A DNA stretch of 64,000 nt from a virus (Duplodnaviria > Heunggongvirae > Uroviricota > Caudoviricetes): IMG/VR virus record IMGVR_UViG_3300029874_000006, positions 10,779-74,778 of that record. The stretch is one strand, 5' to 3'. The position numbers were made by a program, and so were the translations under genes. This document shows, one piece after another, positions 1-58,681 of this stretch (its first letter is position 1; each line of letters starts with the position of its first letter). The notes under the pieces are model-generated. The model saw nothing but the letters and a program-made list of their open reading frames with translations, was not told the DNA's origin and ran no database searches.

Positions 1-1
1 A

Positions 2-6000: not shown

Positions 6001-9000
6001 CATTGATTAGAAGACTGGAGAAGAAATCCATTTAGATTCTCCATTTACCTTTTACTTAGATAACCTTAATTATAACTTTGTAAATTTAAATGCAAATTGC
6101 TCAGAAGCTGAACTATTAAATTTATTAGATGCAGCCAGAAGTAGCAAATCTAAAAAGGCTAATAATTTTGTAAAGAGACTTGCTAAAATAGGTAATTATG
6201 ATAAATAGGTGGACTATTTAGATAAACTTACTAAGTATGAAGATTTAATAAAAGGAGATACTAAAAATCCAGCATATTTAGCCTTACAAAAGGAATCTAG
6301 ATAGATATGGACTTCTTTTATGAAATATCTTGAAAATGTAGCAGCACGTATCCCTGCTTAGTCTTAGTAGTCTTTCATGGCTCAAAGAGTAGCTATGTTT
6401 GAGAATACAGATACAAATAATGCTTATGTAAGTAAATTCTAGTTCTTCTTACAGGGAAGTGACTTGGATGTTGATGCGGCATCTATACAAACATTTGATA
6501 TAAATAGCAACGGTATTTATGAAACTTATTCTCCGTATGCTAATCTGGATTCACCAGCACTTCTTAAAGTTTCTGAAAAATACTTACCGTTCCCAACTGG
6601 AGATAGGATAAAAGTTGAAGAAATTCATGATCCAACTATAACTACTATGCACTAGTTAATAGCTAAATAGCATTATGATGGTAAAAGATTATTTGGATTA
6701 GCTAATAAACTTAATTAGTAGGATGCTTTATTCTTAATAAACTATACTAGAAATAAGGATGTAATCGTAGAGGTAAATACTAACAGTGAATAGAATATAA
6801 AAGATTTAGCTGATATTCTTGAGTCTATTAATTCAGAGGATTGGTATTCTTACGAAGATGATATATCTAATACTAGAGCCTTAACAACTTTATTATTTCC
6901 AGATAATGAAATGGTATTGGATGTAGATTTATATGATAAAATAGAAAATGGTATAATTGAGGCTATAGATAAACATAATACTTATTTAAAGAATAATTCT
7001 AAAGCTAAGAACGATAGAATATTAAAGAATTTTGCTGTAACTTCACTATTAAATATTATTAAAAATCCAGTTAATCTTAGAGAGGCTTAGTCTTCTGTAG
7101 ATGTTATGACATCAACTGCTAAGAACTTAACTAAGGCTTCTCCTAAAAATGCAGTACAAAAAACCTTTACTCCAGGTAATGTATTTAATAAAATCTAGAG
7201 TATCAATGAGAATATGGTTGGTAAAGATGGTATTGCTATCTGTGCGACAGGTCTTAAATCTTTCTTTGCATTAACTCATATGTATAATACAGTATTAAAT
7301 GATGAAAACACTAGTAATTAGGAAAAAGAAGCTTTAATGTGTAAGGTAACAATTGGAGGTAAAACATATAGAGGACTCGCTAACGTAAATGCTAATTAGG
7401 AGTTAATAGAAAGTTTAGCAGATGCCGAGAATGGTAATTTTACTACTTTACAGAATTACTTATTAGCTCAAGAATGGGAATCTGATGCTGCTAATGAAGC
7501 TTCTGCTTTTCTGTCTCTTTCAACTGATAATGCTAAGGAGTTAGCTTTAGCTAAATTAAATGCAGGTACTCAGACTTTGGGTATGTATTTATATGGGTTA
7601 TCTCTTGGAGTTCCAGTAGACACTTTGTTTAAAATAATGACTTCTCCATTTGCTTTTAGATTAGTAGAATTAGCAAAAGGTGATACATTTAGTGGTAATA
7701 GTGGTTGTGGAACTATAATTGGTGCTCTAGACTACTTACATAAAGACCCACTAGAATAGCTTTCTAGATTTAATACATTTGATTTATCTACATATAACGA
7801 AGGTAAACCAAAAGATTAGAAAATATTAGGTCCAGCTGATTTTGCTTGGTAGTTATTGTAGAATAGTATAGCAGATGATTATAATGAAAAATTACCACTT
7901 CTTAGATAGTTAGCTTATAAAGGTAATGCTATTTAGTTAATTGAAGATTTAAGGTCTAAAGTTAATTAGATTAGTAGTGTTATCTAGACAAAAGATGAAT
8001 TTAATCTCTATTCAACCTTATATAATCAAGCACTAGACTTTATGGAATAGTATATTGCTGATGTCTAGCTAGAATTAGATAGTGGAAGTTACGATACTGT
8101 ATACGGAAAATCCATAATAGCTACAGACTTAGAAACTCTTGCTCTTGGTGCTGATGAATATAAAGAAATAGGTAAAATTCTTAGACTTAATCAAGAAGTA
8201 AATACTAATGCTTTAGATTTACAAAACTAGGTAGCTAATATTGAAGAAGTTATAACTAGAAGACTCAGACAATTAGCTAGAGTTGAAAATAGGGGAAGCT
8301 ACTATAGTCATGGTGCCACAAAAGATGAGTTAAAAAATCCTGATAAATATAAGATTGATTTAGAAAAGTTTTTATATGATGAAGTATACTAGTAGGAAAA
8401 AATAGCGTAGTATGATAGAATTAAACAATCTTATAATGTTTTACGTGTTCTTACTACAGATCCTTAGTATAAAGGTTATATGGAAACCTTATATATGGCT
8501 CATCAAGGTCTGTTAAATAAGTAGTTAAAGTATAGATTTACAGTAGGTAAAATTGCAGATTTTATTTAGAAAAATAAAGTTACTGGTAATTTATAGTAGT
8601 AGGTACTTAAAAATGGTAACAATTATGTTGACTATAAACTAAGACAAAATTGGATGCGAGATAGTAAAATACAGATTACTATTCCAGGCAGTACCGATAA
8701 AATGAAAACTTATGCGTTTATAGGAACCCCAAATAGTTATAGTTAGTTATACTTTGATAAAACTATACAACTGGGCACTGATATGGGAGATGCTAATTTT
8801 AAATTATGGATGGAGCAAACTCTTATTCCTAGACTTAAAGCGGACCCAACATTAAAAGATAATATATTTATATAGCATTTAAGTCCTATAGTTAACTCAA
8901 GAACTAATTTGGGTATGACTGCGGTTTATTATGGATTAAATGGAATAAACATGTTGCCTTAGTCTGACGCTGAAAGAGAAATGTTTGATATACATAAAGA

Positions 9001-9784
9001 CGCTTTTAATAAATTAGCAACCTATGACTTGATTAGGGACGCTAAAGGTCATACTTTTGCCATAAAAGACTTATTTTATCTATATTCTTTAATATGTAAT
9101 AACGGTAAATTTGGTCCTACTTCTCTACATAAAATATTTGAGGATTATCTAGATTCAGGTCTAGCCTAGAGTTATAAACACTTTATAGCAGAAAAAGATA
9201 GAGACTTAGATTTCTACCAGGATTTAGTAAAGACATGTACAGATGAATGGCTTGCACCTATGAGTTCTCCTTATGTTGGAGGTTCTAAAGTACTCAAATA
9301 TAAGGATTAGAACAATGAATAGATTCTACTTTATAAAAAGAAGGAAAAGAAGTCAAAAGGTGGATATGACTATGATGTCGAGTAGGATATGGATGACATC
9401 TTTATGAATGATATGGGATTTGATCCAGAAGGTGGAAAAGACCCTATGGCAGAAATCAACAACTATGTTAAATAGGAATCTAGTGCCCTAGCTAAAAGAG
9501 ACTATAGTTTCTTCTCAAATCCTGAAGTTAAATATAATACATCAGGTTTTCAAGTATTATCAACTAAATCAGAACTAATTAATTAGCATCCTATAACCTA
9601 CGAAGTTAGAGATGGTAAACCTGTATTAGTAAATATAGGGGGTGATGGGGAGATTGCAAAAAAGTTTATGAAATTAATGAAAGATCGTAAGGGAATATTA
9701 CCTACTAAGTAGATTCTTGGAACAGATGGATTTACTGCAGTAATTAATGAAGAATAGATTGAATCAGAATTAAATAGTATAATA
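2..9784 (+). CDS. Giant virion/late protein, 5'-partial (>=3261 aa), translated with in-frame TAG read as sense (probably Gln)
   Basis: Frame 2 is open from nt 2 to TAA at 9782-9784. Every interruption seen on manual codon-by-codon reading is TAG (~85 of them); no TAA/TGA in frame. All frame-2 ORF-track fragments (1097, 2264, 3386, 4610, 6464, 7577, 8981) lie in this frame and end at TAG. Codon usage is coherent throughout. Confidence 0.7.
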
Positions 9785-9884
9785 AATTGTGGATAATTGT
9801 TTAATTAAAGATTTAGAATATCGGACTAAGCTATCTTAGTCTGGTATTCCTGAATCTATATTTTATCCATTTTGCAATGGATTT

Positions 9885-10844
9885 ATGAATAAGTATGGGA
9901 GATTACCTAATCTAGATGAAATTCCAAATGTTGATTCTTCTCAACATATAATTAATAAACTGCATCTAGATGGTAATAGCTCAACATCTATAGATAATAT
10001 CATGTCTTCTACTAATACATCAAGTATTGAAGAAGCTAATGTTAGTTTAAATGATACCTATAAAGATAAAGATATAAATATAATTCCTTTATATAAAGAA
10101 GCTTTAGTTGACATAAAAGATAGACCTTCCGAATATAAAACAATAGAATAGGAAAAACATAAAGTAGATAGAAATCCTAATATGCAGGGAGTATTTAATT
10201 AGTTATTTAATAAGTTAGAGAAATAGTATGGAGTACAATTACATACTATTTCAGATAAAGAACTGGCTAGTGATGAATGGTAGGGAATACCTGAAATTTA
10301 GACAGCTAATGCTTTTATTTATAATGGAGATATATATATAAATACAGACCATGCAAAAGCCGATGCTCCTATACATGAAATGACTCATATGTTATTAGGT
10401 TCTATTAGATTTAAAAATCCTGATCTTTATTATGGAATTGTACAACAAGCCTAGAATTTTCCAACATTTAATTAGTTTATAGAACAAAACCCAAATAGAG
10501 CTATAAATGATAATATGGAAGAATTATTTGTTACAGAAATGTCTAAATATCTAGCAGGGGAATCTAGCATTATTGAATAGTTAGATGAAACCGTTATTAA
10601 TGAGTTACATTATAACATGAAGAGACTATTAGATACTGCACTTATGGGTTAGTATAGTGTAAAAAGTATTCCTGATTCTAAGTTATATAGAATGTCTTTA
10701 GCTGATTTAGTAGAAACTGTAAATTCCCAGATGTTAGAAACAAGTTTTTATGGAAGCCTAGATGACGCTGCTTTGCATAGAGTATTAGCTAATACTAAGT
10801 CAGATTTAATGAAAAAAGGTGATTTAAGAGAAGATTGTGTATGA
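9885..10844 (+). CDS. HExxH (HEMTH) zincin-like putative metallopeptidase, 319 aa, TAG-recoded
   Basis: ATG at 9885 (frame 3), ~10 internal TAGs, ends at TGA 10842-10844. Motif ...DAPIHEMTHMLLG... Stop overlaps the next gene's ATG (ATGA coupling). Confidence 0.55.
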
Positions 10845-13800
10845 AATGTATTTATAGTTATAAAGGAAAACAGTTTTAGTCCATACAATAGTTAGATGAT
10901 TTTCTATTAGAAAAACAAATATATGAAAGTAAATATGGAGATTTAGTATTCTCTATGACTGAAAAATAGTTGTCTGCTTAGAATAGAATTGATAGCATCA
11001 ATAAAGAAGCAGAGGAACTAAATAAAAAATATGCTGAAGCTAAGAAAAACGCGTCATTTATAGACTCAGAAGAAATATTAAAAATGACTCGTCCTTATGT
11101 AGGTGTAAGTGAGTTTTTAATGGATTAGAGAAATGATGAAGGAGAACTTTGGGTGCCTACATTTACTACCGAGTATTGGGCTAAACAATACTTAAATTGG
11201 AGTTAGGGAATTTACTCAAAAGACGAAAAAGATGCATTTTTTGATGGTGATGATTCTAAAGTATAGCCTGTAGAATTAGGAAATCAGGGGGATTGGCGTA
11301 AAGCGGATGGCTCTCTAAAGGATGATTTTGGAACTATTGAATAGAATAACTTCCGTAAAATAATGGAAGATAAGTGGAAACACTAGGCTAAGTATGGTGA
11401 TGATATTCATGCCATTATGCAGAGTTATTTTGCTAGAATAGGCGAAGATTCTGATGGAAATCCTAAGTATCGATATGAATTATGGGAAGGAGATCAAGGA
11501 GCTATGCATTTAGCTAAGAGTATTAAATATATGCGTAATAAAGGAATTATTACTGATGAAATGACTGATGCTAAAATTAATAGTATATTAGAAATAGCTA
11601 GAAATTTAAGAGATTAGTTATAGAGTTAGTATGGCAAAAAATGTATATTTTATCCTGAAATTACTGTTAGTGCCAAATTGAATCATGAATATGAAGGTAG
11701 AGACGATTTAAGTGTATTAGGTCGTCTAGACTTATTAGTTATTGATGAAGATGGTATTCCTCATATTATGGATTACAAAACTTCTCCTAAAAATTACGAT
11801 GACTTTGTCGAAGCTAAGAAACTTACATTTACTTACTAGTTAAGTACCTATGAAAGAATGCTTAGGAGACATGGTTTTAATACTACAGCCACAAGCTTAA
11901 ATATTATACCACTTAAACTAAATAACTTTAGAAAAGAGAATGGTAAATGGACTTACGATGATGTAGTACCTGGTGGTAATTTACTAGAATCAATAACTGA
12001 TAGAGCCAATAAAGATTACATAGCTAATAATCTTGATGAATACATAGAAGCTCCATTATTATTAGATGGGGATTCTAGTAAGATTACAGAGAATGTAACT
12101 GATTTAATGAAAACTTGTTTTCCTGAACATGGTAATGTAGCCACTGATGAATAGATAAAAAAGATGATTGATGGCTAGGGAGGTTTCCATGAAAATAAGG
12201 AAGCGGGTTCTTTGGAGTTTAAGCCCAAGGGATGGACTAAGACTATATCGGTAAAGTAGAAGGAAGGGGCAGAAGCTGAATTATTTAATAAGGTTAAGAA
12301 ATTCTTTACAGGCTAGAGAGAACGTAGTTTAAAGAGAACTTAGGAAATTAAGAGAGCACTTAAACAAGCACAAGCTGAAGACACTAGATAGATTTAGTTA
12401 CCTAATTCTATGAGTGATTGGACTAAAACAAGGCTATCTAAATATTGTAGTAAATCTTGGGAAGTAATGGAAGGTCATGCACAAGATGTTGCTGAGCAAT
12501 TTGGTATGATATTTTTATATAACAAAGCTAATGATTTAGTAGAGGTAGTTAAAATTAGTTCTGCAGATTTATCTTTTTAGCATTCTTGGGGAAAAGGTAG
12601 ATAGAATATTATTGGGGCAAAGGAAGCTGATTTGGGAGAAAATTCCAAGTCAGACAGTTTGATTATTAAAGCTACTAATGGTAACATAGAGCTTATGGAA
12701 GCCATGGCAGTTTTAAATAATATTCAGTTTAATAAGTCTATTTAGTTAGGAAACATAAGTGTTCTTAATCCGGTATTTGGTTAGGGAGCTGAAACTAATT
12801 CTAATAAAGAGCTGCTTTATAACTGGAGAAAACTTAGAAAAACCTTTAACATGGATGGGGAAGATTAGTTTAAATAGGATGGTACTATTAAATTATTGTC
12901 TTTAGCTGAAAGAGCCTATCTGGAGTATGCTGATATAATGGATAGAGTTAATGACAGGTGGCAAGCTCAAGAATTTAGTAAGTTTAAACCTGCTATGACT
13001 GAGTTACAAAGTTCCTTACAACCTAATAATGTAGAAGAAAGTCTTGAAGCTCTTAATTAGCTTAAAACCAAATTGGAGAAAGACTTTGGAATGAATAAGG
13101 ATATTTTAACCAGGGGAGAAAATAAGGGTAAAAGTATATATTCTGAAGTATAGAATTATGACTAGCAATATACTAAGTAGATGTACCAAATAACTCTTAG
13201 AGCCATTGCTGAACTTAGCGGTTTTGATATTAGACAGGAAACAAAAGCACACAGTTCTTTCTTAGTCTTAGAAAATGGTATGTCTGGAAATATGATAGAT
13301 AACCCAGGTAACTTTGGTAATAGACTTCTTAATTAGGTAACTTAGTTAGCTCTTGATGGTTATTAGAATACTCGAGATATGTCAATTAAAAGACTTAATG
13401 CACTATCTGAAAAAGTACGAGAGCTAAAAAGAGGTGAAAACTATGGGGTTATTAGTGAGTATGGATTTGGTAATTAGGCTTCTCTCTATAATGGTATGAC
13501 TTATTATGATACTGATGGTGACTTTAAATTTAAAAATCCTTGGAAAGATAATTCCCTACCTGAACATAAAAAAGAGTTTTTAAAATGGGCATTAACCGAA
13601 ATAGCTAAAAATAAACATCCTGATTGGACTCCCGAAGTTATTAAAGATAAAATAGAAGCAAATGATCCAGATTTCTTTTAGGTTCCTTTAATAAGGGCAG
13701 ATGCCGCATCTAAAATTAATGCAGACGGATGGTTAGGTTGGTTAAAAAGTAAAATGAGACCTTTAATTAGCAAAGATAATGGAGCAACTTTTAAAGAGAG

Positions 13801-15673
13801 AATTCAAAATACTTTAAAAGATATACAATCTAAATATTTATCTGATGAAATAGATTAGTAGCAAAGTATTGACGGTGAAGTATTTAAAGTAATAAATACT
13901 ATGGATTAGGGAAGTGGTCCTGGCAGATTAGACTTAATTAAACATCTACAAGGAAAATACGGATCTAATTGTTTTGAAACGGATATAGAAAAAATATTAG
14001 GTGCTCATATGATGGCATATGCTACTCAACAAGCCATGGAAGATAGAATGCCTTTAATTAAAGCAGCTTATATATCCTTAGCAGTAATGGGTAATAACTA
14101 GGGGGTAGACTATTCTTCTGATGAGAAATATATTAAAGAATATGTTCAAAATAAAATAAATAAATTAGCAATAGATAATCCTTAGTTAAGACATTTAAGG
14201 AGTGCCACTGGAATGTTACAAAAAAGTGCTTCTTGGATGGCATTAGCTTTTTCACCTTTACAAATGTCTTATTAGAGTCTGGAAGGTGTTTGGAAGGCTG
14301 CTAAATTAGTTATAACTAAACCAGATGGTAAAGAAACATTTAGTTTTTCTAATATGCGTAAGGCTATGGGTATTGTATATAAAGAATTGTTTAATTATAG
14401 TGAAACAAATTCTGTAATAGAGGGTTGTAACGCTCTTTATGGTATAAACGATATGGATGCTGCCTCATTTGCCCAAAACAATAGTACTAATAAGCATGGT
14501 CTGTTTAATTTCTTTGACAGAATTGCATATTATTGGTCTTCTCGTCCCGATTTCTATAATAGAATGTCAATATTCACAGCATAGATGCTTGAAGATGGTA
14601 GTTATGAAGCTCATTCAGTAGATGCCAATGGTAACTTAATATACAATATTAAAAAGGATAAGAGATTTGAAGCATTATTTAATAAACCAAAGGGTTCTCC
14701 TGAATATAATAAAGCAAAAGCCTTATTCTTAGCCACTGCTTAGTAGTTAGTGAGGGAAAACGCTAGAAATGCCGATGGTTCATTATACACCATAGATTTA
14801 GATAATCCAAATTTACCTAAAGCCTACTCTAATAAAGAGTCTGAATCTATGAAAGCTATTGGGGATACCATGTATGGATATTACGATAGTTCTAAGAAAT
14901 CATTATGGCAATCTACATTCTTAGGAGGCCTTATGATGCAAATGCAAACATATTGGTCTGGTAAAAAGAATTAGTATCTTGCTCCTGGAGGTATTAAAGC
15001 ACAGGGTAAATGGGTCTAGATGGTAAGTCCTAATGGTAAAAAGTGCTATTATTCTAAAAATGAAAATGGAGATATTGATAACTCCTCAATGCCTGTAGAA
15101 GAGGGAGATCCTAGAGCTAGTGAAGTACCCTTTATGCAATGGAAGGGTAGATTTGAAGAAGGCGCTTTTATAACCTTATATGATGTACTTAAAAGAACTA
15201 TAGGACATAAGGGAAATCTTAAAGCTGCTTGGAAAGAGAAGTTAGATGGAACTGACGAAGACTTATAGAAACTTTATAAGTAGAACATGAAGTTGATAGT
15301 TAGTGACTTACTCGGTATGTTACTTATTGGTTCTTTACTAGGCGGATTATTAGAAGATTTAGCTGATGAAGAAATTAAAAAGGCTAAAAAATCTGCACAG
15401 ATTGGAGATGCTATGGCTGCAACAGCCTTAAGTCTAATAGCTAAGACTGTAAGAAATTCAGCTCTAGATTTTAACATGATAGACTCTTTGTTTGGCTTTG
15501 TAGGGGATTGGAATCCATTCTCTCTTAGTTATGCAGCTAATTAGCTAAGTAATGGTTGGAGTCTTATAACTGGAGATAAAAATTGGGAATAGACTCTATG
15601 CAGTGCCTTCTCTGCAGCACGCTAGATGAGACCAATACTTAATTGCATTAATTAGTCTTTACAAGAGGATTAA
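10841..15673 (+). CDS. Giant virion/late protein (1610 aa) with RecB/Cas4-like PD-(D/E)xK motif, TAG-recoded
   Basis: Frame 2 opens after TAA at 10826-10828; ATG at 10841 overlaps the upstream TGA. Frame open to TAA at 15671-15673 with dozens of TAGs. ORF-track fragments 11417, 11858, 13496, 14354, 14750, 15020, 15287 are all in this frame. Motif LGRLDLLVIDEDGIPHIMDYKTSPK near 11700-11790. Confidence 0.6.
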
Positions 15674-25388: not shown

Positions 25389-25715
25389 TTAGTGAACCCA
25401 ATGGTCATTTATATCTATATCTGCTCCTAAAAATACATTAGGACAGAATGGTTTACCTCCGGCTATCATACAATCAATCAACACTTTACCCACTTGTTCT
25501 TTAATTGCTGCTGGACACTCCAAGTTGAATTCATCATGAGCTGGTACACACATCTTTACCTTATCTATTAGCTTATGATCCACAATCCAATTAAATAGTT
25601 TAATAGAAGATAGTTTAAAGCACATTGCTCCTCTATTTTGTATCAATGTTTGGACTATTTCATTATCCCATAGGGATATTGGGCGCTTATAGGATATTAT
25701 TGCTTCAATACTCAA
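25389..25715 (-). CDS. DNA polymerase I (family A) C-terminal fragment, palm motif C to C-terminus
   Basis: NRGAMCFKLSS (QGSAAD-like), CVPAHDEFNLE (motif C, VHDE), C-terminal ...INDHWVH (Pol I-type end). No ATG: the ORF opens after TAA and the earliest start-like codon is TTG. Confidence 0.65.
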   Translation of the reverse strand: MSIEAIISYKRPISLWDNEIVQTLIQNRGAMCFKLSSIKLFNWIVDHKLIDKVKMCVPAHDEFNLECPAAIKEQVGKVLIDCMIAGGKPFCPNVFLGADIDINDHWVH

Positions 25716-25830
25716 TCCTTAGTCTCTGAACCTTCTTACTACTTTTACTTGATTCATAAGCTTGGCTGCAGATTATTCTAATATTAGACCTTCCTGCAAT
25801 TCACCCAATTTACAGTAGATAATTACTTAT

Positions 25831-27780
25831 CTACGCCGCATACATTTTACGGTAATTAATAGATTGTTTCTCAGAAGCTGCTTTACGCTGCATATAGTGT
25901 CTTACTTCTTGTACAATCTCATCCTGTGGATTGCGTTTTCTTGCATTCTGATAATATTCCCAAAATCCGGGTTCCTGCATCTTGTTATGAGTCTCTTTTA
26001 ACTCCTCGGCATCATAAATATGTGCTCTATGTCCAGTAAGGGGATTAAGTAATATATAACCATCTCTCATAACAGCTGCTCTGCAATAATCTTGATATCT
26101 TTTTATTCCTGGAAAACCTTCCATAAAATTATCATAAATTTCTTTTGCTTCTTCTACAGGAATACCATCATTTTTGGAGATAGTATTATAATCTCCTCCG
26201 TAGTTTATCGCGAATTCAATAGATTTAGCTTTTTGTCTCCAATTATGATAGAGCTTCTTTATATCCTCAATCTTAGTGTCTCTTGGAATTATATTAGGAT
26301 AACTCATATAGGCTACCAAAGAATGGACATCACCACAACCATGTTCAAATAGGTCTATCATCTTCTCATCTTTAGAAACAGATGCAATAATACGAGATTC
26401 CTGACTTTGATAATCAGCAGATAACCAAGCATTACCTTCTTCAGATGTAAAACATGCTCTAGTTTCTGGATCATTCGGTAAGTTTTGAATGTTCAGTTTC
26501 CAAATACCGCCACCAGAGCTAACTCTTGCAGTATCTGTACCTATAGAATGAAAATCTGCATGTATTCTACCTGTTTTAGGATTAATTGCATTTAGCCAGT
26601 TTTGTCCATAGGTAGATACGACTTTGGCAGCTTCTTGATATTCCAAAAATATAGGAATAATTGGAAAGTCATTCTTTTGAGGTTTTAAAACATTTGCTTC
26701 AATAGACTTCTTTTTCTGTTTAGTCTTTTTGTCAAATGTCTCCACATTAATTCCAAGTAACTCAAATAGAGGTATTACTTGTTTTTGACTACTCCAATTT
26801 ATCACACATTTAGGTTCAGTATCAAATCCTGTAAATAAGTCACCTTGAGTATCAATTCGTGTAAACTGATTCTTAATTACTTTCTTATAAGCATCAACCT
26901 TACCATCAGGGGTTTGTAAGTCTTCCTGAGGGAACCTTTTATATCCATCTTTAATTAGTCTCTTTACCTCAGCAGGATAATCTGCAGAATACTTTGGATA
27001 TTTAAGTTCAGGATATTGAATATCATAGCCATTATGAGGATTTTCTTTATCCCAAGCTACTACCCAAGCATTTAATTCTGAAATAGCCTTATCAAGTTTA
27101 GCTTGATCTTTAGTCATTTTAGCTTTCCACTTCGTAATATCAAGATGAACTCCACAATATTTAAAGTAAGCAAGGGATTTAACAAATTCACATTCCAGCT
27201 CTACTGCGAGTTTCATGCCTTGTTTTTCTATTTCAATATCTTGTTTTTCTTTTATATCCTCTATATACGTAACATCTCCTGCAGCATAAATAACGACCTC
27301 AGTAGTTAAACCATCATTAACAATTTTACCTCGAACAGTTTTATCAATGTTAATATTTAAGTAATTCCATGCAGCTGCTTTCAAGCTCTTTTCACGCATT
27401 TGAGCTGGATACCCTAGATATAAGAGCTGTTCTACTATCATACCATCCCAAATATGCTTAGGATAGATACCCTGAACATATAAAAAGGTTAAATCAAACA
27501 TTAAATTCCATCCCAGAAACAATCTGTCTGATTCTAGGTAGTTTTTAACTATTTGCTTTTCTCTTAGAGTTAGAGTAGTCCAATCAATAACTACTTGATT
27601 ATCTTTATTACCTAACTGTATAGTCAATAAAGCTTTGGTATGACAGTCGAGACCCTTAGTTTCTGAATCTAACTGACATAGTTTGAGCGGCAACAGAACA
27701 GACATTGCCTGCTCCATTGTCGCTTCTATATATATATCCGTTTGAAATAAACTTTTATTATGACTAACTAAATAAATCAT
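25831..27780 (-). CDS. DNA polymerase I (family A) N-terminal part: 3'-5' exonuclease plus palm motifs A and B
   Basis: Exo I CQLDSETKGLD; Exo II YAAGDVTY; motif A LSADYQSQESRIIA; motif B RQKAKSIEFAINYGG. Lacks motif C. Terminates at TAG 25831-25833. Confidence 0.85.
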   Translation of the reverse strand: MIYLVSHNKSLFQTDIYIEATMEQAMSVLLPLKLCQLDSETKGLDCHTKALLTIQLGNKDNQVVIDWTTLTLREKQIVKNYLESDRLFLGWNLMFDLTFLYVQGIYPKHIWDGMIVEQLLYLGYPAQMREKSLKAAAWNYLNINIDKTVRGKIVNDGLTTEVVIYAAGDVTYIEDIKEKQDIEIEKQGMKLAVELECEFVKSLAYFKYCGVHLDITKWKAKMTKDQAKLDKAISELNAWVVAWDKENPHNGYDIQYPELKYPKYSADYPAEVKRLIKDGYKRFPQEDLQTPDGKVDAYKKVIKNQFTRIDTQGDLFTGFDTEPKCVINWSSQKQVIPLFELLGINVETFDKKTKQKKKSIEANVLKPQKNDFPIIPIFLEYQEAAKVVSTYGQNWLNAINPKTGRIHADFHSIGTDTARVSSGGGIWKLNIQNLPNDPETRACFTSEEGNAWLSADYQSQESRIIASVSKDEKMIDLFEHGCGDVHSLVAYMSYPNIIPRDTKIEDIKKLYHNWRQKAKSIEFAINYGGDYNTISKNDGIPVEEAKEIYDNFMEGFPGIKRYQDYCRAAVMRDGYILLNPLTGHRAHIYDAEELKETHNKMQEPGFWEYYQNARKRNPQDEIVQEVRHYMQRKAASEKQSINYRKMYAA

Positions 27781-28040
27781 TGATAATTACAAATAGTTAA
27801 ATTATTTAGAACTATATCTTCATTATCAATATTTAATTTGTCTTTTATAGCTTCTTCTACAGCTTCTTTTAATTCTTCTTCATTAATAACTAAATGCCTA
27901 CCTTCTTTATACTGAGGAATGGTAATATCTACAAAAGTACCTAATTCAACATTTACTTCTACAGTAATATTTCTATTATTAGGTTCATTCCAAGGTGCAC
28001 TTGGGTCATTATAAGCTCCTGCTGGATAATTTTCTGTCAT
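27777..28040 (-). CDS. Hypothetical protein (87 aa)
   Basis: ORF, 4-nt overlap. Confidence 0.35.
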   Translation of the reverse strand: MTENYPAGAYNDPSAPWNEPNNRNITVEVNVELGTFVDITIPQYKEGRHLVINEEELKEAVEEAIKDKLNIDNEDIVLNNLTICNYQ

Positions 28041-28360
28041 GCTAAATAGTCATTTAACCACTCTATTCCATATTCATCTATTACCTTTTCATCTATCTTT
28101 ATAGCTTCAAGTTCTATATCCTCAAGCTGCTGTTCATACCAATCTTCAAATTGATCCTCATCATCCTCGTCTATATCTGGACTATCTAAATAGCTAAATG
28201 AGTTAACACACTCGTCTCTTAATTCATTTGCATAACTCAGTTCTAATGTAGGATCTTCTTCACTTTCAATTACTTCATTTATTGAAGCATCACAAGCAAC
28301 TGGATACTTAGCAATAACTAGCCACCAATTCCCATTAAGAAATTCTTCCTTAGATATCAT
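28037..28360 (-). CDS. Hypothetical acidic protein (107 aa)
   Basis: ORF. Confidence 0.35.
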   Translation of the reverse strand: MISKEEFLNGNWWLVIAKYPVACDASINEVIESEEDPTLELSYANELRDECVNSFSYLDSPDIDEDDEDQFEDWYEQQLEDIELEAIKIDEKVIDEYGIEWLNDYLA

Positions 28361-29205
28361 TATATTAATTTAGATAACTGTAAATTGCATCTTTTTCTTA
28401 TTTTATCTAAAGCTTTTTCTTTTATTTGTCTAACTCTTTCAACACCAATGCCAAACATATCTCCTACTTCTTGCTTGGACATAGGATTCATTCCTATGCC
28501 AAATAACATAATAATAATATCATGTTCTCTGACAGGAAGTATATCTAGACATTTGCATAGTTCCTTATTAATAAAGCTTTTATTAACTTGTTCGTCAAGA
28601 GAAGGCTCTCCGTCCGGTATCACATCACATACTTGACTATTTTCCTCATCCCCACCAATAAAGTCATCGACACTAACTAATCTGTTAGAAAATTGTGCCA
28701 AATAGTCTATTTGCTTTTCAGGGATATTAGTTAAAGTATGTAATTCATTTGTAGTTGGATTTCTACCATTCTTTTTAATAAACTCATTAGTAGCTCTTAA
28801 TATTTGAATTACTTTTAAGTGTTGAGTTACTGGCAATCTAATCTCACGACCATACCAATATATAGTAGTATAAATACATTGTTTTATCCACCAAGCAGAA
28901 TAATTAAGAAATTTAACACCCCTAGTTGGGTCAAATTTATTTACAGATTTACATAAACCTTCCAATCCTGAGGATATTAAATCCATAAGGGGAATACCTC
29001 TATTTTGAAACTGCTTAGCTATAGTTACTACAAATCTTAAATTAGAAGTAATTACTTTTTCTCTAGCCTTTTCATCCCCATTTTGAGCTTCAACAATTAG
29101 CTTGTTTATTTCTTCATTATCTAATATTTTATATTTAGATATATCTCGAAAATAACTCTGAAGTAGAGAGTCAGACTTGTCAGAAAAAATAATTCTTTTA
29201 TTCAT
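28360..29205 (-). CDS. Sigma-70 family RNA polymerase sigma factor
   Basis: Region 2: NLRFVVTIAKQFQNRGIPLMDLISSGLEGLCKSVNKFDPTRGVKFLNYSAWWIKQCI. Region 4 HTH: SKQEVGDMFGIGVERVRQIKEKALDKIRKR. Confidence 0.8.
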   Translation of the reverse strand: MNKRIIFSDKSDSLLQSYFRDISKYKILDNEEINKLIVEAQNGDEKAREKVITSNLRFVVTIAKQFQNRGIPLMDLISSGLEGLCKSVNKFDPTRGVKFLNYSAWWIKQCIYTTIYWYGREIRLPVTQHLKVIQILRATNEFIKKNGRNPTTNELHTLTNIPEKQIDYLAQFSNRLVSVDDFIGGDEENSQVCDVIPDGEPSLDEQVNKSFINKELCKCLDILPVREHDIIIMLFGIGMNPMSKQEVGDMFGIGVERVRQIKEKALDKIRKRCNLQLSKLI

Positions 29206-29461
29206 TAATTGTGGACTTAGCTAGTGCTTTAGCTTCATCTAATTGTTTTTCTTCTTGGGTTGGTTGATTAAGACCTATACGTATACTAAGAATAGTGAGA
29301 TAAGCTTCCATTGCCTTGAGTTGAGCTATCAATAAATCTTTATTAAGATTATCTATAGAAGTCTTATCTATTTTATTAATTAAGAAATCTCTAAGCTTTG
29401 TAGTTTTAGTTTCCAATTCTTTGTACTCTGTAAGTAGTCTGTCAAACACGCTCTTTTCCAT
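29198..29461 (-). CDS. Hypothetical coiled-coil protein (87 aa)
   Basis: ORF. Confidence 0.35.
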   Translation of the reverse strand: MEKSVFDRLLTEYKELETKTTKLRDFLINKIDKTSIDNLNKDLLIAQLKAMEAYLTILSIRIGLNQPTQEEKQLDEAKALAKSTINE

Positions 29462-29529
29462 GTTAATTTTTATTTTAGTTAAAGTAGAATCTAGAACAGT
29501 AAATATCTAATATATTATCTTCTTCTTTA

Positions 29530-35415: not shown

Positions 35416-35469
35416 ATTAATTAATATTAAATATTAAGTATTTATCTAATTAATCTAATAAATCTAATA

Positions 35470-40017: not shown

Positions 40018-40788
40018 TTATACCCTCTCTTTCGAGATATTTAGTTTATTAATAACATAATCTTTTATTTCAGCTTTTCGTTCATCTGAAATTTTATCAA
40101 TATAAGATTTATATACTGAATCATTAGCTTCATTTCTATACGATTTTAACATATATATTTCACAAAGATACCTTTGATATACTGCTTCTTCTTTTAATGT
40201 ATATTCTTTCATATAATATCTTTGTTTCATATAAGTAAAATCAGTCTTCCATTTGTTACTTTTTTTACAAAAGGAAACTCCTCGTATTCCGGAAGTATTA
40301 GTAGATTTCTTTTGCAGATTTAACATATTTTCTTGTACAGTTACTTCTCTAAGATTAGATTTCCTATTGTCACGAGTGTCACCACTTATATGATCCACTT
40401 GTTTATCAGTAGGCAATACCAGTCTATGAAAGTATATACGCTCTTTTTTCTAATTTCCTGTAAATAAATATGGTTTATCATTTTTATAAACAGTTCTCCA
40501 TTTATGACCCTTTAATTTCGAAATGTCATTTACATCTAGAATAAATGTTTCCATAACATTTCCATAAGAATCATAAGTATCTATTTCTGCAAAATTATCT
40601 TTTAATCTAATTTCATTATCATCAAATACACCTCTTGGATTAGAGTCTTTAAATTCTCCATAATTTTTAAACTGCCTTGCGTGTTTAAGACAGAGTGTTT
40701 TTCCAGCTAAGTTATTAAAACTCACTTGTTTAAATTTTGATGATACACCACATACTTCACAAAAGCGTTCTTCAGTTATTTTTCTCAT
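40018..40788 (-). CDS. HNH-AP2 homing endonuclease paralog carrying one in-frame TAG (recoded Gln, or a nonsense pseudogene)
   Basis: ORF-track pieces 40450..40788 and 40018..40416 are in the same frame, separated only by TAG (at 40450-40452 on the + strand). Across the TAG, ...KPYLFTGN-TAG-KKERIYFHRLVL...VDHISGDTRDNRKSNLREVTVQENMLN aligns with the intact paralog ...KKYFVHRFLMG...VDHINGDSLDNRKSNLRICTQQEN. Confidence 0.55.
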
Positions 40789-41075
40789 ATTGTCAAAATT
40801 GTGTTAATAATAAGGGAGTGGACTATACCATCAACCGATTAGGTTGCGCATTGGTAGTCTCTGAGACCCATAAATTTTTATCTATGTCAAGTATGTACAC
40901 GACTTGTATATACCACAATAGTATTAACATAAATTAACAATTTATATGTCTGCTGATTGCCCAATCCTAAGACTTGTTCATTTTTGAATTAAATTCAAAT
41001 ATACTTAGGCTCTAAGGGGTTTCCAGCATATTCTGCGTTTTCATCATAACATTACTGTTATAAGGGGCGTTTATT

Positions 41076-41486
41076 TCACCCAATAATTCTAGTATAATAT
41101 TTGATGTGTCTACAATGACAAATAGGACACTCATCAATAGGGGCATTTACTACATGTCCGCATTCTCTACATTGAGACATTGGGATATTAAATGTGAAAT
41201 AACTAGTACCCTCATCCTTAGCTACATCTAACAGATGTAAATACTGTTGTTTACTTAAATGAGCATCAAGATTTGCATGAAGTGCCTGACCTCCATCACA
41301 ATACTGAGCTACTCCTCTACCATGAAGCTTAAATTTATCAAGAATAGAGGTCTCATCCCATGGATTATAGAAATAACAATTATACAGATTCTGATTTTCA
41401 GGTACTGCATAACCATCCTTCTTATCCCAATTATAGAGTTTTACACCTAATCCTTCCCCCGATTCTATTACACCCCTTCTAAAGAA
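41076..41486 (-). CDS. nrdD: nrdD 3' exon: C-terminal zinc-ribbon and glycyl-radical region of anaerobic RNR (no start codon)
   Basis: Frame open from just after the HNH gene: ...GGQALHANLDAHL...DEGTSYFTFNIPMSQCRECGH...CPICHC...KYYTRIIG then TGA. No ATG until deep inside. Exon boundary approximate. Confidence 0.6.
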   Translation of the reverse strand, partial: FFRRGVIESGEGLGVKLYNWDKKDGYAVPENQNLYNCYFYNPWDETSILDKFKLHGRGVAQYCDGGQALHANLDAHLSKQQYLHLLDVAKDEGTSYFTFNIPMSQCRECGHVVNAPIDECPICHCRHIKYYTRIIG

Positions 41487-42442
41487 TTAATATATTTATG
41501 TAATTCTTTAATCGGTGAAGGGTGATTTAATACATAATACAGGTCTTTATTTGGACCGTATTCACCACAAAGTTCTTGCTCTTTTTTAAGCCTAGCAAGT
41601 AAGGCTTCTTCAGCTGTGTTATAATATCCCAAATAGATAGTTTTGTAATTATGACAAATTCGTGCAGTCCATTTAGATTTATCAGTTCCATTATAGTTTT
41701 TAATAAAGGAAATTCCAACAATTCTATTAGTTTTTCTTCCATTTTTAGAATTTTCTTGTTGGGTACAGATTCTAAGATTAGATTTTCTATTATCTAGGGA
41801 ATCGCCATTTATATGGTCTACAACTTCGTTAATAGAATATTTACTATCTTTTAATCCCATTAAAAATCTATGTACAAAATATTTTTTACCAGTACCCTTT
41901 TCTGAAACTAAAGCATACCATTTGTCTGTTTGATGACGTGCATAAAGTTTAAAGTCTTTTAGTTTGTCATAATCTTCCTTATCTATTTTAGTTCTAGCTA
42001 CTTCATTAGAGTTTTTGTCTTTTAGTATACATTCATAATAATCACCACAATCAATCCATTCATTCTCCTCATATATAGTATTAAATGTTTCTCCGTGTCG
42101 AGTTATTTGTAAATAATGTCTTCTACAATAAGGTTTTCCCTCAAATGAAGCCATTTTTAAATCGCCACATACGCAACATTTAAGTTCATCTTCGGATTTT
42201 TTTCTTTGTCTAGGAGTAGAATCAGTAATTTTATGATATTTATCTAATTGATTGTAATGCTTTTCACATAAACAATACTCATTATACCTTCTTAGTTTTA
42301 CATAATCACGCCCACAGCCACAAACATAACATTTAGCATCTTTAGGCATAACTATTCTTTTTAATTTTTGTTTTTCAAGATTTTCTAATTCAGGAAATTC
42401 GCTCATAATTATTTTAAATTGATTATATGCAATTATAAGCAT
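41468..42442 (-). CDS. HNH-AP2 homing endonuclease (intron-encoded)
   Basis: N-terminal CxxC repeats; HNH VDHINGDSLDNRKSNLRICTQQENSKN; AP2-like VGISFIK...WTARICHNYKTIYLGYYNTAEEA. Confidence 0.8.
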   Translation of the reverse strand: MLIIAYNQFKIIMSEFPELENLEKQKLKRIVMPKDAKCYVCGCGRDYVKLRRYNEYCLCEKHYNQLDKYHKITDSTPRQRKKSEDELKCCVCGDLKMASFEGKPYCRRHYLQITRHGETFNTIYEENEWIDCGDYYECILKDKNSNEVARTKIDKEDYDKLKDFKLYARHQTDKWYALVSEKGTGKKYFVHRFLMGLKDSKYSINEVVDHINGDSLDNRKSNLRICTQQENSKNGRKTNRIVGISFIKNYNGTDKSKWTARICHNYKTIYLGYYNTAEEALLARLKKEQELCGEYGPNKDLYYVLNHPSPIKELHKYINSLEGV

Positions 42443-42680
42443 TCCAAAATTAAAACAAAATTTACACTTTGTGATTTTGTATTAAACGAATTGATATTTC
42501 TATCAATTTCTTAATGTTACCATTAAGTCTCGACTATTGCATATTTAGTACTATGTACTAAATCCTCTTTACTTAGTCTGTCACGCTGCACACAGTATTA
42601 ATCAATACCATTGCTTGCGCCTCGTTGTCCTATATATAGGTGAATATAGGAGTTTCGAGTCAATCAAAAGAGGTTTTACA
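41468..42680 (-). mobile_element. Putative group I intron (ORF in the 3' peripheral region) interrupting nrdD
   Basis: ~230-nt ORF-free segment just 3' of the nrdD exon-1 stop holds P7-like elements ACAGACUAAG (R-like) and AAUAGUCGAG (S-like) on the minus strand (+ coordinates ~42574-42582 and ~42531-42540), then the HNH ORF, then the nrdD continuation with no start codon. Same arrangement as T4 nrdD/sunY with I-TevII. Confidence 0.5.
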
Positions 42681-44421
42681 TCCCCAGAGATTTAGGGATG
42701 GCTTCACTATTAAACAAGAATGGTCTTTTACTATCGTGGATAGAGTTTTTCTTATTTTCTTCTTTAACAGTACCAAATACTAATTTAAGAAAATCTTTAT
42801 ATTCCTTATTATTAGATACCGATAGTCCCAAGAATTGTGCAGCTTCACAATAACCTATCAATCCAATGGTAGAATACAATTTACGCATATAAATATATCC
42901 TGCATTACAATCAGAAAACATTTTAGCGTCTTCCATTTCATAAAGCATTGTCTTATATGCAATATGATACTTATATACTCTTTTAAGAATATTAATAAGA
43001 TAATTTTTTAAGTCTGAAAAACTCTCAGAAAACCACTCAAAAGGAAAGGCACACTTACCATCAACAATATGATCCTCCCAATTTTTCCATGTATGTATAT
43101 AATCCTGAACAATTCTATTAATATTAAGAGTAATTACATTACAAGAACCAGTCATAACTCCAGTCATACCTGTAGTAGAACTAAAGGTATTATCAGACAT
43201 TTCATTTAGGACTCTACAACATGATGCCAAAGATGTAGGATTATCACTAGTATAGCAGAAGAAACTTCCACCTTTAGCCCACTCTTCGGCACATAACTCT
43301 TTGTATTCATGATCAAGATACTCTTTACCATTATGTACAAGAGCCATAGTAGTTACTGGAAATGTGAGAGGTTTAATTAATCTGATTTCTCTTAAAAGTT
43401 GCATAAAGATTCTCTGCAACTTATCTATAGCATTCCATTCAGGTTGTGTTCCATCAGGATAATAAAATTCTCCAAAGAGTGATTTAAAATATACTTTATC
43501 ATAAAAAGATACATTAGAGAAAGGTGAATTGTAGCTTCTATTGCCTGCAGGTTGATTAACTCCATAAATAAACTGCTTCATACCCTTTCGGATATAATGT
43601 CCAACAGTATACTGATGCAGAAAGTGGGAATTAGTTACAACTTCATCCACCTTATCATACCATACAGGTCCAAACTCTTGAATTACATAATAATTAAGAG
43701 CTATAAAATAATCTCCAAGAGCAACCGCTCCCTTACACTGAGAACTAAACAAAAACACAGCATTAGTTACCTGACCACTAAAAGACTGAATATCATTTGG
43801 AGCACTAGGAGTAACTCCATCAATATTACCTACACCCTTAAGCATTAATGGGTACAATGTAACTGCTTTACAATAAGGTTTAAGTACCGGAGTACTTGCC
43901 TCATCATGAGTATAAATAATATGATTTTCCAAATCCTTAATATACTGTCTTCCAAGTTCTTGACCTGGATACAATTTATTAAGTTTATCTTTCATTCGTT
44001 GTCTTTGGATAATTCTATTAGTTACTTTATATACTTCACCCTCAAGATTAGCTACATTCTTAGAAGCAACATTAGCATTAGCATCTGTTTCTGAAGAAGT
44101 AGATGCATTTACACCAGAATCTTTATAAGTGTCCATGTAATTAAGTCTACTTCTAATAAATCTAGCTTTCTTGTGTTCTTCTCTATAAATGGAATAAGCT
44201 CTGGCTACATCAAAATATTCGTAATTATATAAAGTCTCTTCTACTTCATCTTGAATTTCTTCTACAGTAATATTATCCCAGAATCTCATTTCTGAAACCA
44301 TATCCCGAATAACATTTTCAACAGAAGTATAACCGCAAGCTTTAAATGCCTTAGTTAAAGCATTAAATATTTTATCTGCATTAAACTCTTCCTTTGTTCC
44401 GTCTCTTTTTATAATGACCAT
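42676..44421 (-). CDS. nrdD: Anaerobic ribonucleoside-triphosphate reductase NrdD, 5' exon (ATP-cone plus catalytic barrel; lacks glycyl-radical C-terminus)
   Basis: N-terminal ATP-cone VIIKRDGTKEEFNADKI; 581 aa of class III RNR-like sequence ending ...AIPKSLGM without the C-terminal Zn-ribbon/Gly-radical region, which is found downstream at 41076..41486. Confidence 0.8.
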   Translation of the reverse strand: MVIIKRDGTKEEFNADKIFNALTKAFKACGYTSVENVIRDMVSEMRFWDNITVEEIQDEVEETLYNYEYFDVARAYSIYREEHKKARFIRSRLNYMDTYKDSGVNASTSSETDANANVASKNVANLEGEVYKVTNRIIQRQRMKDKLNKLYPGQELGRQYIKDLENHIIYTHDEASTPVLKPYCKAVTLYPLMLKGVGNIDGVTPSAPNDIQSFSGQVTNAVFLFSSQCKGAVALGDYFIALNYYVIQEFGPVWYDKVDEVVTNSHFLHQYTVGHYIRKGMKQFIYGVNQPAGNRSYNSPFSNVSFYDKVYFKSLFGEFYYPDGTQPEWNAIDKLQRIFMQLLREIRLIKPLTFPVTTMALVHNGKEYLDHEYKELCAEEWAKGGSFFCYTSDNPTSLASCCRVLNEMSDNTFSSTTGMTGVMTGSCNVITLNINRIVQDYIHTWKNWEDHIVDGKCAFPFEWFSESFSDLKNYLINILKRVYKYHIAYKTMLYEMEDAKMFSDCNAGYIYMRKLYSTIGLIGYCEAAQFLGLSVSNNKEYKDFLKLVFGTVKEENKKNSIHDSKRPFLFNSEAIPKSLGM

Positions 44422-47834: not shown

Positions 47835-47884
47835 TTAATTTAATTACTTAATTATTTAAAGTAATCTAGCTATTAATGTATCTA

Positions 47885-47925
47885 AAGAAAAAAAGGTGAC
47901 TATCCTCACGGACAATCACCTTACT
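47885..47925 (-). terminator. Strong intrinsic terminator downstream of 47962..48543
   Basis: + strand reads A7-AGGTGActatcctcacggacaaTCACCT; on the minus strand a 6-bp stem is followed by U7. Confidence 0.6.
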
Positions 47926-53023: not shown

Positions 53024-53104
53024 ATATTATATAATTTTCAAAATTTAAGTAATCATAATCTAATAAATTAATTGTTATCTAATATATTTAATTAACTCTA
53101 TTTA

Positions 53105-58621: not shown

Positions 58622-58681
58622 ATAATTAAATTCAAATAATGTTTCATAGTAATCTAATAATTAATAATCTACAATATAAAT

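Follow-up and report, generated by a model that had tools for sequence, protein, structure and literature searches.

We analysed a 64,000-nucleotide (nt) stretch of the IMG/VR virus record IMGVR_UViG_3300029874_000006 (positions 10,779 to 74,778 of that record; hereafter the window, with positions counted from its first letter), with a focus on a gene for a sigma-70 family transcription factor. An initial annotation had proposed that positions 28360-29205 hold a full sigma factor encoded by the phage, with recognizable regions 2 and 4, but had left the strand of the gene unstated. The gene lies on the minus strand, inside a minus-strand replication block that spans 16.5-64 kb, and its parts are as follows:

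28360-29205, minus strand: sigma-70 family gene, 281 amino acids (aa), ATG start, TAA stop (open reading frame (ORF) list, Pfam, PHROG and PDB alignments)
29110-29163, minus strand: region 1.2, degenerate, aa 15-32 (Pfam Sigma70_r1_2, E = 0.13; alignable with region 1.2 of Bacteroidales RpoD)
28867-29052, minus strand: region 2, aa 52-113, core binding and -10 recognition or melting (Pfam, ortholog alignment)
28606-28806, minus strand: region 3, aa 134-200 (Pfam Sigma70_r3)
28393-28551, minus strand: region 4, aa 219-271, helix-turn-helix (Pfam, ortholog alignment)

Family membership and completeness

Using the curated Pfam cut-offs for regions 2, 3 and 4, we confirmed that the ORF is a full-length, phage-encoded sigma-70 family factor without region 1.1. 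Sigma70_r2 (E = 3.1e-13, 49.7 bits versus a cut-off of 24), Sigma70_r4 (E = 4.6e-12, 45.7 versus 24.1 bits) and Sigma70_r3 (E = 5.6e-08, 33.2 versus 25.3 bits) all scored above threshold, so the profile search that the initial annotation had suggested as a check returned both the region 2 and the region 4 model rather than neither; the match to Sigma70_r1_2 was weak (E = 0.13). The claim of a full factor is likewise borne out, with the protein matching PHROG 351, 'RNA polymerase sigma factor' (E = 3e-59), and aligning with primary sigma factors in the PDB over regions 1.2 through 4.2 (best E = 9e-43). Just 14 residues precede region 1.2, and region 1.1 is therefore absent.

Among NCBIfam models the RpoS and RpoD families ranked at the top, both far under their equivalog cut-offs (RpoS_proteo, 201.4 versus 378.7; RpoD_Cterm, 180.8 versus 354), and the sole model that the protein passed was the superfamily model TIGR02937 (95 versus 42.9). 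Since only the superfamily model was passed, the protein is therefore neither an RpoD or RpoS equivalog nor an extracytoplasmic function (ECF, group 4) sigma; the latter is the label of one GenBank ortholog and is ruled out by a region 3 above its cut-off and by the full-length alignment with primary sigmas.

Relation to the primary sigma factor of Bacteroidota

As a reference for Bacteroidales RpoD we used a sequence that we verified against a protein collection, where it matched real proteins at 94-100% identity, including proteins of Prevotellaceae and Paludibacteraceae named RpoD/SigA. The Prevotellaceae RpoD/SigA protein P0242 (286 aa) aligned nearly end to end with the phage sigma, with just 2 gaps and 39% identity across 273 aa (188 bits), region 1.1 being missing in both. 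Over aa 45-271 the phage protein was 42.7% identical to this RpoD/SigA (177 bits), as compared with 155 bits for cyanobacterial SigA and 140 bits for Firmicute SigA, and a more basal ortholog on a rumen phage contig (L019) reached 46% identity to RpoD and retained more of its signatures. We also ran an exhaustive HMMER search against 1.84 billion cluster representatives. Of the top 150, 103 were nearer to the Bacteroidales RpoD reference than to two other references, a tally of nearness that is no phylogeny, and 91 were 270-300 aa long.

The Bacteroidota primary sigma (RpoD/SigA, about 286 aa, for example P0242) thus resembles the phage sigma in its length class and its lack of region 1.1; the two are colinear from about residue 8 to the end at 39-43% identity and have the signatures AKQ(F/Y)QN, FGIG and RVRQIKEKA in common. 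The unusual short sigma-A of Bacteroides was reportedly described in 2005. Unlike its cellular counterpart, the protein studied here is encoded by a phage, scores well under the RpoD/RpoS equivalog cut-offs (201 versus 379 bits) and is altered at the equivalents of T440, R441, A444/D445, H455, E458, T583 and R584 (Escherichia coli numbering) and at QE.N of region 2.2. Taken together, these similarities point consistently to capture of the phage sigma from a short primary sigma (sigma-A) of the Bacteroidota type.

Retained and altered residues

We compared residues in an alignment of nine phage orthologs with cellular sigmas. F99, Y102, W106 and Q109 of region 2 and E256, R257, R259 and Q260 of region 4 were invariant across phage and cellular proteins, and W105 was nearly so; the invariant residues correspond to E. 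coli F427, Y430, W434, Q437, E585, R586, R588 and Q589. In the E. coli sigma, F427, Y430, W433, W434 and Q437 act in melting and recognition of the -10 element, while E585, R586, R588 and Q589 belong to the -35 helix.

The residues that confer specificity on primary sigmas have a different fate. T440, R441 and R584 are not kept, and the window protein has Y, T and V in their place: the T440 equivalent is Tyr across the phage crown group, and the equivalents of R441 and R584 vary among the orthologs, with V, S, K, R, G or P at the R584 position (aa 255). A444/D445 are replaced by Tyr/Trp, and the extended -10 contacts H455/E458 are lost. This pattern argues for a promoter specificity that differs from that of the host sigma-A, with a weak or absent requirement for a -35 element.

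Selection and distribution

Among relatives, the ratio of nonsynonymous to synonymous substitution rates (dN/dS) of the sigma gene was 0.01-0.02, and the gene is under strong purifying selection. Six contigs that encode an identical sigma protein had just 2-3 synonymous differences from the window, and more than 1000 metagenome contigs, spread over 2240 data blocks, carry the exact 281-aa protein. Given this recurrence and the low dN/dS, the sigma is a core gene of a very abundant and very widespread human-gut phage.

Sigma-bearing phage contigs of up to 186 kb also occur inside species-representative metagenome-assembled genomes (MAGs) of GTDB (L010-L019), labelled Bacteroides, Clostridium, Gastranaerophilales, Coprovivens, Erysipelotrichaceae, Anaeroplasmataceae and others. 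We rejected these labels as evidence of the host, as they look like composition-driven mis-binning of phage contigs with 30% guanine-cytosine content. Sigma-like domains of similar score were also present within very long library proteins, namely P0297 (7852 aa), P0306 (2087 aa), P0289 (927 aa) and P0293 (984 aa).

The operon and the replication module

The sigma gene is the second of five genes that are tightly packed, with overlaps, in the order PF21825 protein, sigma, 107-aa protein, 87-aa protein and PolA:

29198-29461, minus strand: Sequestin / crAss001_48 family (PF21825) gene, 87 aa, upstream of sigma (Pfam, E = 6e-16)
28037-28360, minus strand: 107-aa acidic protein, downstream of sigma in the operon (ORF list)
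27777-28040, minus strand: 87-aa protein of the same operon, function unassigned (ORF list)
25389-27780, minus strand: family A DNA polymerase (PolA), exons at 25831-27780 and at about 25389-25715 (each matched by Pfam DNA_pol_A)
25633-25859, minus strand: group I intron splitting PolA (Rfam RF00028, 81.1 bits)

The ATG of sigma lies within the last codons of the Sequestin gene (8-nt overlap). This gene order was kept on all contigs with an identical sigma and in relatives whose sigma is 66% identical; in a 43% identical relative, sigma, two small ORFs and PolA were still together. The intron split of PolA likewise recurs in relatives.

The 87-aa PF21825 protein starts with MEKSVFDRL and ends with ALAKSTINE, identical to the residues encoded by the cloning primers for SequestinA, a protein shown experimentally to be a 3'cADPR sponge against Thoeris (bioRxiv 10.1101/2025.07.12.664507). 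Judged by these termini, the window protein is very probably this anti-Thoeris sponge or a near-identical variant of it. A precomputed PF11195 (Tad2-like) match was found on the orthologs of the 107-aa protein from L001-L003; a Pfam search of the 107-aa protein of the window gave no match.

The minus-strand block uses the standard code and encodes DnaB-like and superfamily 2 (SF2) helicases, ThyX, an anaerobic ribonucleotide reductase, DNA and RNA ligases and PolA. The ribonucleotide reductase gene (NrdD; 42676-44421, minus strand) spans just profile positions 11-414 of 562 and is followed by an ORF for an HNH endonuclease (41468-42442, minus strand), with NrdD-like sequence restarting further down, an arrangement that suggests an endonuclease-bearing insertion in NrdD (41468-44421, minus strand). 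No Rfam model for a second intron matched at the interrupted gene. At 40450-41416 (minus strand), four short ORFs end in TAG, a stop used by 10 of the 89 called minus-strand ORFs, and may be fragments of one gene. In the 10 kb past the right end of the window (L031 1-9776), the same phage carries an 819-aa P-type cation ATPase, adenylosuccinate synthase, RNase H and a cluster of seven tRNAs (Ala, Gly, Asp, Ile, Thr, Met and Tyr), with no suppressor tRNA in that stretch.

The recoded late block and assignment of the phage

On the plus strand, positions 1-15673 contain no standard-code ORF of at least 150 aa. Once TAG is taken as a sense codon, three ORFs that overlap one another open up in this stretch (more than 3264, 352 and 1616 aa). 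They hold 160 in-frame TAG codons, more than CAA plus CAG; TAG in the late block is probably read as Gln. Two of the ORFs bear on transcription or on the assignment of the phage:

2-9796, plus strand: giant late ORF, about 3460 aa, 98 in-frame TAG, start about 590 nt before the window (TAG-sense reading)
10823-15673, plus strand: late ORF, 1616 aa, 52 in-frame TAG, PD-(D/E)XK nuclease, part of the 'transcription block' (Pfam PDDEXK_1, E = 1.3e-08; PHROG 1218, exonuclease)

The giant ORF contains ARIPAQSQQSFM followed, after about 30 residues, by GSDLDVD, with the DxDxD motif at nt 6461-6475. This combination is retained in the consensus of 16 homologs. It resembles the double-psi barrel of beta-prime with its DFDGD motif, as well as DFDID in the virion polymerase of phage phi14:2, which makes the protein a candidate virion RNA polymerase. 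Searches of the giant ORFs against PHROGs and PDB sequences returned nothing for this candidate, a tblastn search with it found unannotated fecal contigs only, and the AlphaFold model of a 39% identical homolog was poor (predicted local distance difference test score, 57.8), with meaningless Foldseek matches. The late block continues upstream of the window (L024 1-7149; L025 1331-12000; L033 1234-7764) in overlapping giant ORFs of about 1570, 640, 3090 and 2176 aa that are likewise readable only with TAG as a sense codon.

A near-identity DNA search of deposited phages gave no match to the window. Zeta-group crAss-like phages have been characterized by genomes of 145-192 kb and by DnaB- and SNF2-type helicases, Thy1, ribonucleotide reductase, PolA or PolB and a PD-(D/E)XK nuclease (PMC7886860). 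The Pfam matches agree with this gene content, and contigs with an identical sigma or its orthologs represent genomes of 186-190 kb. The group also has a block of giant multidomain late proteins, one of them bearing the DxDxD motif of the RNA polymerase large subunit, and the late ORF with GSDLDVD may be its counterpart here. Two further hallmarks of the group were also found, namely stop-codon reassignment confined to late genes (160 TAG codons on the plus strand, standard code on the minus strand) and self-splicing introns in core genes (the PolA intron), and a 2026 mouse virome catalogue lists 'RNAP sigma factor' among the functions enriched in the Zeta subtype. On these grounds we regard the phage as quite likely a member of the Zeta group of crAss-like phages.

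A strand-specific intergenic motif

We compared intergenic with coding sequence of the minus-strand block in an unbiased, strand-specific k-mer test. The top k-mers not composed purely of A and T belonged to the TATTAGATTA family. On the sense strand, 10 of 28 copies of TAGATTA were intergenic versus 2 expected (p = 1e-5), as were 15 of 66 copies of TAGATT versus 4.7-5.0 expected, and no antisense copy of TAGATT(A) was intergenic in this block. The pattern recurred in the independent 9.8 kb past the right end of the window, where seven of eight TAGATT copies were intergenic (p = 2.6e-4) and none antisense, the sites lying after a terminator hairpin, ahead of the tRNA cluster and ahead of ORFs. 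For about eleven genes, among them the operon headed by Sequestin and sigma, the nearest copy stood 23-46 nt ahead of the ATG, and the hexamer shares T, A and the final T with the -10 hexamer. In relatives with a 66% identical sigma, TCTAGATTC was kept exactly 26 nt before the ATG of the operon, with diverged flanks. The copies include:

29488-29493, minus strand: TAGATT, 26 nt ahead of the ATG of Sequestin, putative -10-like promoter element for the operon (sequence)
29504-29509, minus strand: TAGATA, second motif copy (sequence)
16020-63752, minus strand: TAGATT(A) sites across the block, for example 29488-29493, 35443-35468, 47863-47868, 53057-53062 and 58651-58656
Beyond the window: L031 1086, 6082, 6217 and 7085; L025 911 and 950

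At 47888-47920 (minus strand), a hairpin resembling a terminator (GGTGATTGTCCGTGAGGATAGTCACC, then a run of T) directly precedes two TAGAT motifs and the next gene, and the site looks like a terminator-promoter junction.

The late block offers few places for such elements. In the window, the three overlapping giant ORFs at 1-15673 (plus strand) leave no intergenic space, and about 24 kb of upstream late block on near-identical contigs have just two short gaps (L025 877-972 and 1279-1330). The larger gap (877-972) holds two TAGATA copies whose positions are conserved in a diverged relative, and neither gap yielded a late-specific motif. A Bacteroides-like TTTG-N20-TACTATTG element in a late-block gap was rejected for its lack of conservation in L030, a diverged relative.

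TAnnTTTG is the consensus of the Bacteroides-type -7 element. It showed no enrichment in the phage, with a whole-window count not above that of shuffled sequences. The whole-window count of ATTAGAT was also not above shuffles; the signal of this family appears just in the intergenic, strand-specific test. A generic sigma70 promoter scan around the gene gave 29 sites versus 34.9 in shuffles, with no enrichment of promoters or terminators.

Proposed role and alternative explanations

In the crAss-like model phage phi14:2, the whole replication module is early and transcribed by the injected virion polymerase, a search found no motif common to the early transcripts, and middle and late genes are transcribed by the host RNA polymerase from sigma70-like promoters. 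The phage studied here resembles phi14:2 in its two opposed modules and in a giant late-block DxDxD protein (DLDVD here, DFDID in gp66), and its sigma gene belongs to the replication module, the early one in phi14:2; by this analogy, the initial placement of the gene in an early block is reasonable. The same annotation considered a sigma notable in a phage class thought to rely on a virion RNA polymerase for early genes. This has to be tempered, because phi14:2's middle and late genes already depend on the host enzyme, and for the same reason a phage sigma would be a replacement for the host sigma-A within the crAss scheme rather than a contradiction of it; what stands is that it would modify the scheme, in which gp66 serves early genes and the host polymerase with its primary sigma serves middle and late ones, by possibly putting a phage sigma in the place of sigma-A. 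That the sigma would redirect the host enzyme to middle or late genes, as the annotation proposed, is plausible.

We favour, with somewhat better than even confidence, a functional sigma that is expressed from the operon of the replication module, binds the host core polymerase and directs it to phage-specific promoters dominated by a -10 element. In such a scheme the phage lineage would have acquired a Bacteroidota-type sigma-A and then remodelled it. Expressed early or early-to-middle in infection from the operon of Sequestin, sigma, the 107-aa and 87-aa proteins and PolA, the factor would bind host core RNA polymerase through its retained regions 2, 3 and 4 and bring it to phage promoters unlike those of the host sigma-A, complementing the virion-delivered phage polymerase that would begin infection. 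A -10-like element would dominate these promoters, with TAGATT(A) as the best candidate, and the copy before the sigma operon itself would allow positive autoregulation. A more specific version, which we put forward only tentatively, is that a captured and re-tuned host primary sigma takes over the step of the host sigma, reading TAGATT(A) without a -35 element in both modules and before the tRNA cluster, so that the injected polymerase would act first and host core with phage sigma next, the host sigma-A being dispensable or excluded.

Several observations weigh against the scheme. Q406, E407 and N409 of region 2.2 are important for core binding in E. coli; they are replaced by Ser, Ser and Leu in the crown group, including the window protein, with the Glu (E407 equivalent) retained in basal phage orthologs. 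No -35-like block was found upstream of 22 aligned TAGATT sites. The motif is short, its single-window statistics are just suggestive after multiple testing, and it occurs in both modules and so marks no temporal class. It also often stands in two or three direct copies spaced by 9-19 nt, in one case next to a palindrome that is conserved; as direct repeats and a palindrome fit either, TAGATT(A) is possibly the site of a DNA-binding regulator or a promoter of the phage polymerase, and that it is a promoter read by the phage sigma is a conjecture about which we have considerable doubt. The crAss-like assignment is built on motifs and context and not on a capsid or terminase phylogeny.

The protein might instead substitute for, or compete with, the housekeeping sigma, reading host-type promoters on the phage genome and either covering for a limiting or inactivated sigma-A or displacing it from core to silence host genes. 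Such a role would fit a protein that is closest to and colinear with a host-type primary sigma and keeps E585, R586, R588, Q589 and the melting residues, as well as the middle promoters of phi14:2, which are sigma70-like and read by the primary-sigma holoenzyme. We think it unlikely, as the specificity positions depart from Bacteroidales RpoD in a phage-conserved way, TAnnTTTG is unenriched in the intergenic regions of the phage and the generic sigma70 scan gave fewer sites than shuffles. Less probable again is an auxiliary gene for host reprogramming, with a sigma that toggles host genes (stress, metabolism, surface) and not phage genes. In every relative, even at 43% identity, the gene keeps its place next to PolA; this and purifying selection of such strength are more typical of core than of accessory functions, and a phage-wide motif exists, even though the sigma gene adjoins anti-defence genes and host-directed phage sigmas are on record in the sporulation-like sigmas of Bacillus phages (bioRxiv 10.1101/2021.11.12.468384).

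We give very little credence to the sigma being the specificity subunit of the phage's own RNA polymerase, virion or non-virion. That idea draws on the giant beta-prime-like protein that the phage appears to encode and on the early transcripts of phi14:2, for which no common motif was found, but all modules that dock on bacterial core are kept, the protein is closest to cellular sigmas and the phage polymerase has diverged extremely far from the cellular enzymes. We know of no precedent for a sigma serving a phage's own polymerase. Synteny and selection refute a non-phage origin, whether as a bacterial gene brought in by mis-assembly or mis-binning or as a pseudogene in decay. Orthologs do occur in GTDB 'genomes' that bear labels such as Bacteroides, Clostridium and Erysipelotrichaceae, but the sequences concerned are phage-like, either contigs of 140-186 kb or fragments, and share the phage synteny; the identical protein recurs on more than 1000 contigs with the same neighbours, the flanking genes are phage genes and dN/dS is 0.01-0.02.

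Comparison with known phage sigma factors

Phage sigmas that redirect the host core polymerase to middle or late genes are known from Bacillus phage SPO1 (gp28 and gp33-34) and from T4 (gp55). By analogy, the sigma described here would likewise be made early and be expected to replace the host sigma on host core, and the candidate promoter, like the late promoters of T4, consists of a -10-like element alone. Unlike the highly diverged or truncated sigmas of SPO1 and T4, it is complete from region 1.2 to 4.2 and 39-43% identical to a cellular primary sigma. Full-length phage sigmas resembling groups 1 and 2 occur in Microcystis phage MaAM05 (rpoD), Synechococcus phage S-CBS3 (rpsD4) and huge gut phages with Prevotella as listed host, whose lineages and hosts are unlike those of this phage. 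Among deposited phage genomes, the best tblastn matches had 29-35% identity over at least 81% of the length and were annotated as RNA polymerase sigma factor; no ortholog above 36% identity was found in that collection.

Phage-encoded sigmas are common and have been surveyed in roughly 3400 phage genomes, with about 14% positive and just two Bacteroidetes phages among them, and Yutin 2021 with its supplements, the 2023 Crassvirales review and the 2025 Zeta paper describe no phage sigma for phi14:2 or crAss-like phages. The gene itself is already annotated publicly, as 'RNA polymerase primary sigma factor' in IMG and as 'ECF sigma factor' or 'DNA directed RNA polymerase subunit' in GenBank. Steering the host RNA polymerase, the most likely use of the sigma here, is a familiar phage strategy, and one without earlier analysis in this phage group.

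The crAss-like phages are dominant viruses of the human gut, and what is known of their expression programme comes from just two relatives in culture. With a conserved sigma, one of the most widespread lineages not yet cultured now offers a concrete handle on gene expression. If the link between sigma and motif is false, the gene would still be a useful lineage marker; if it is true, it would define promoters for annotating recoded, intron-rich genomes and would exemplify a capture-and-retune route by which phage sigmas evolve from a host primary sigma.

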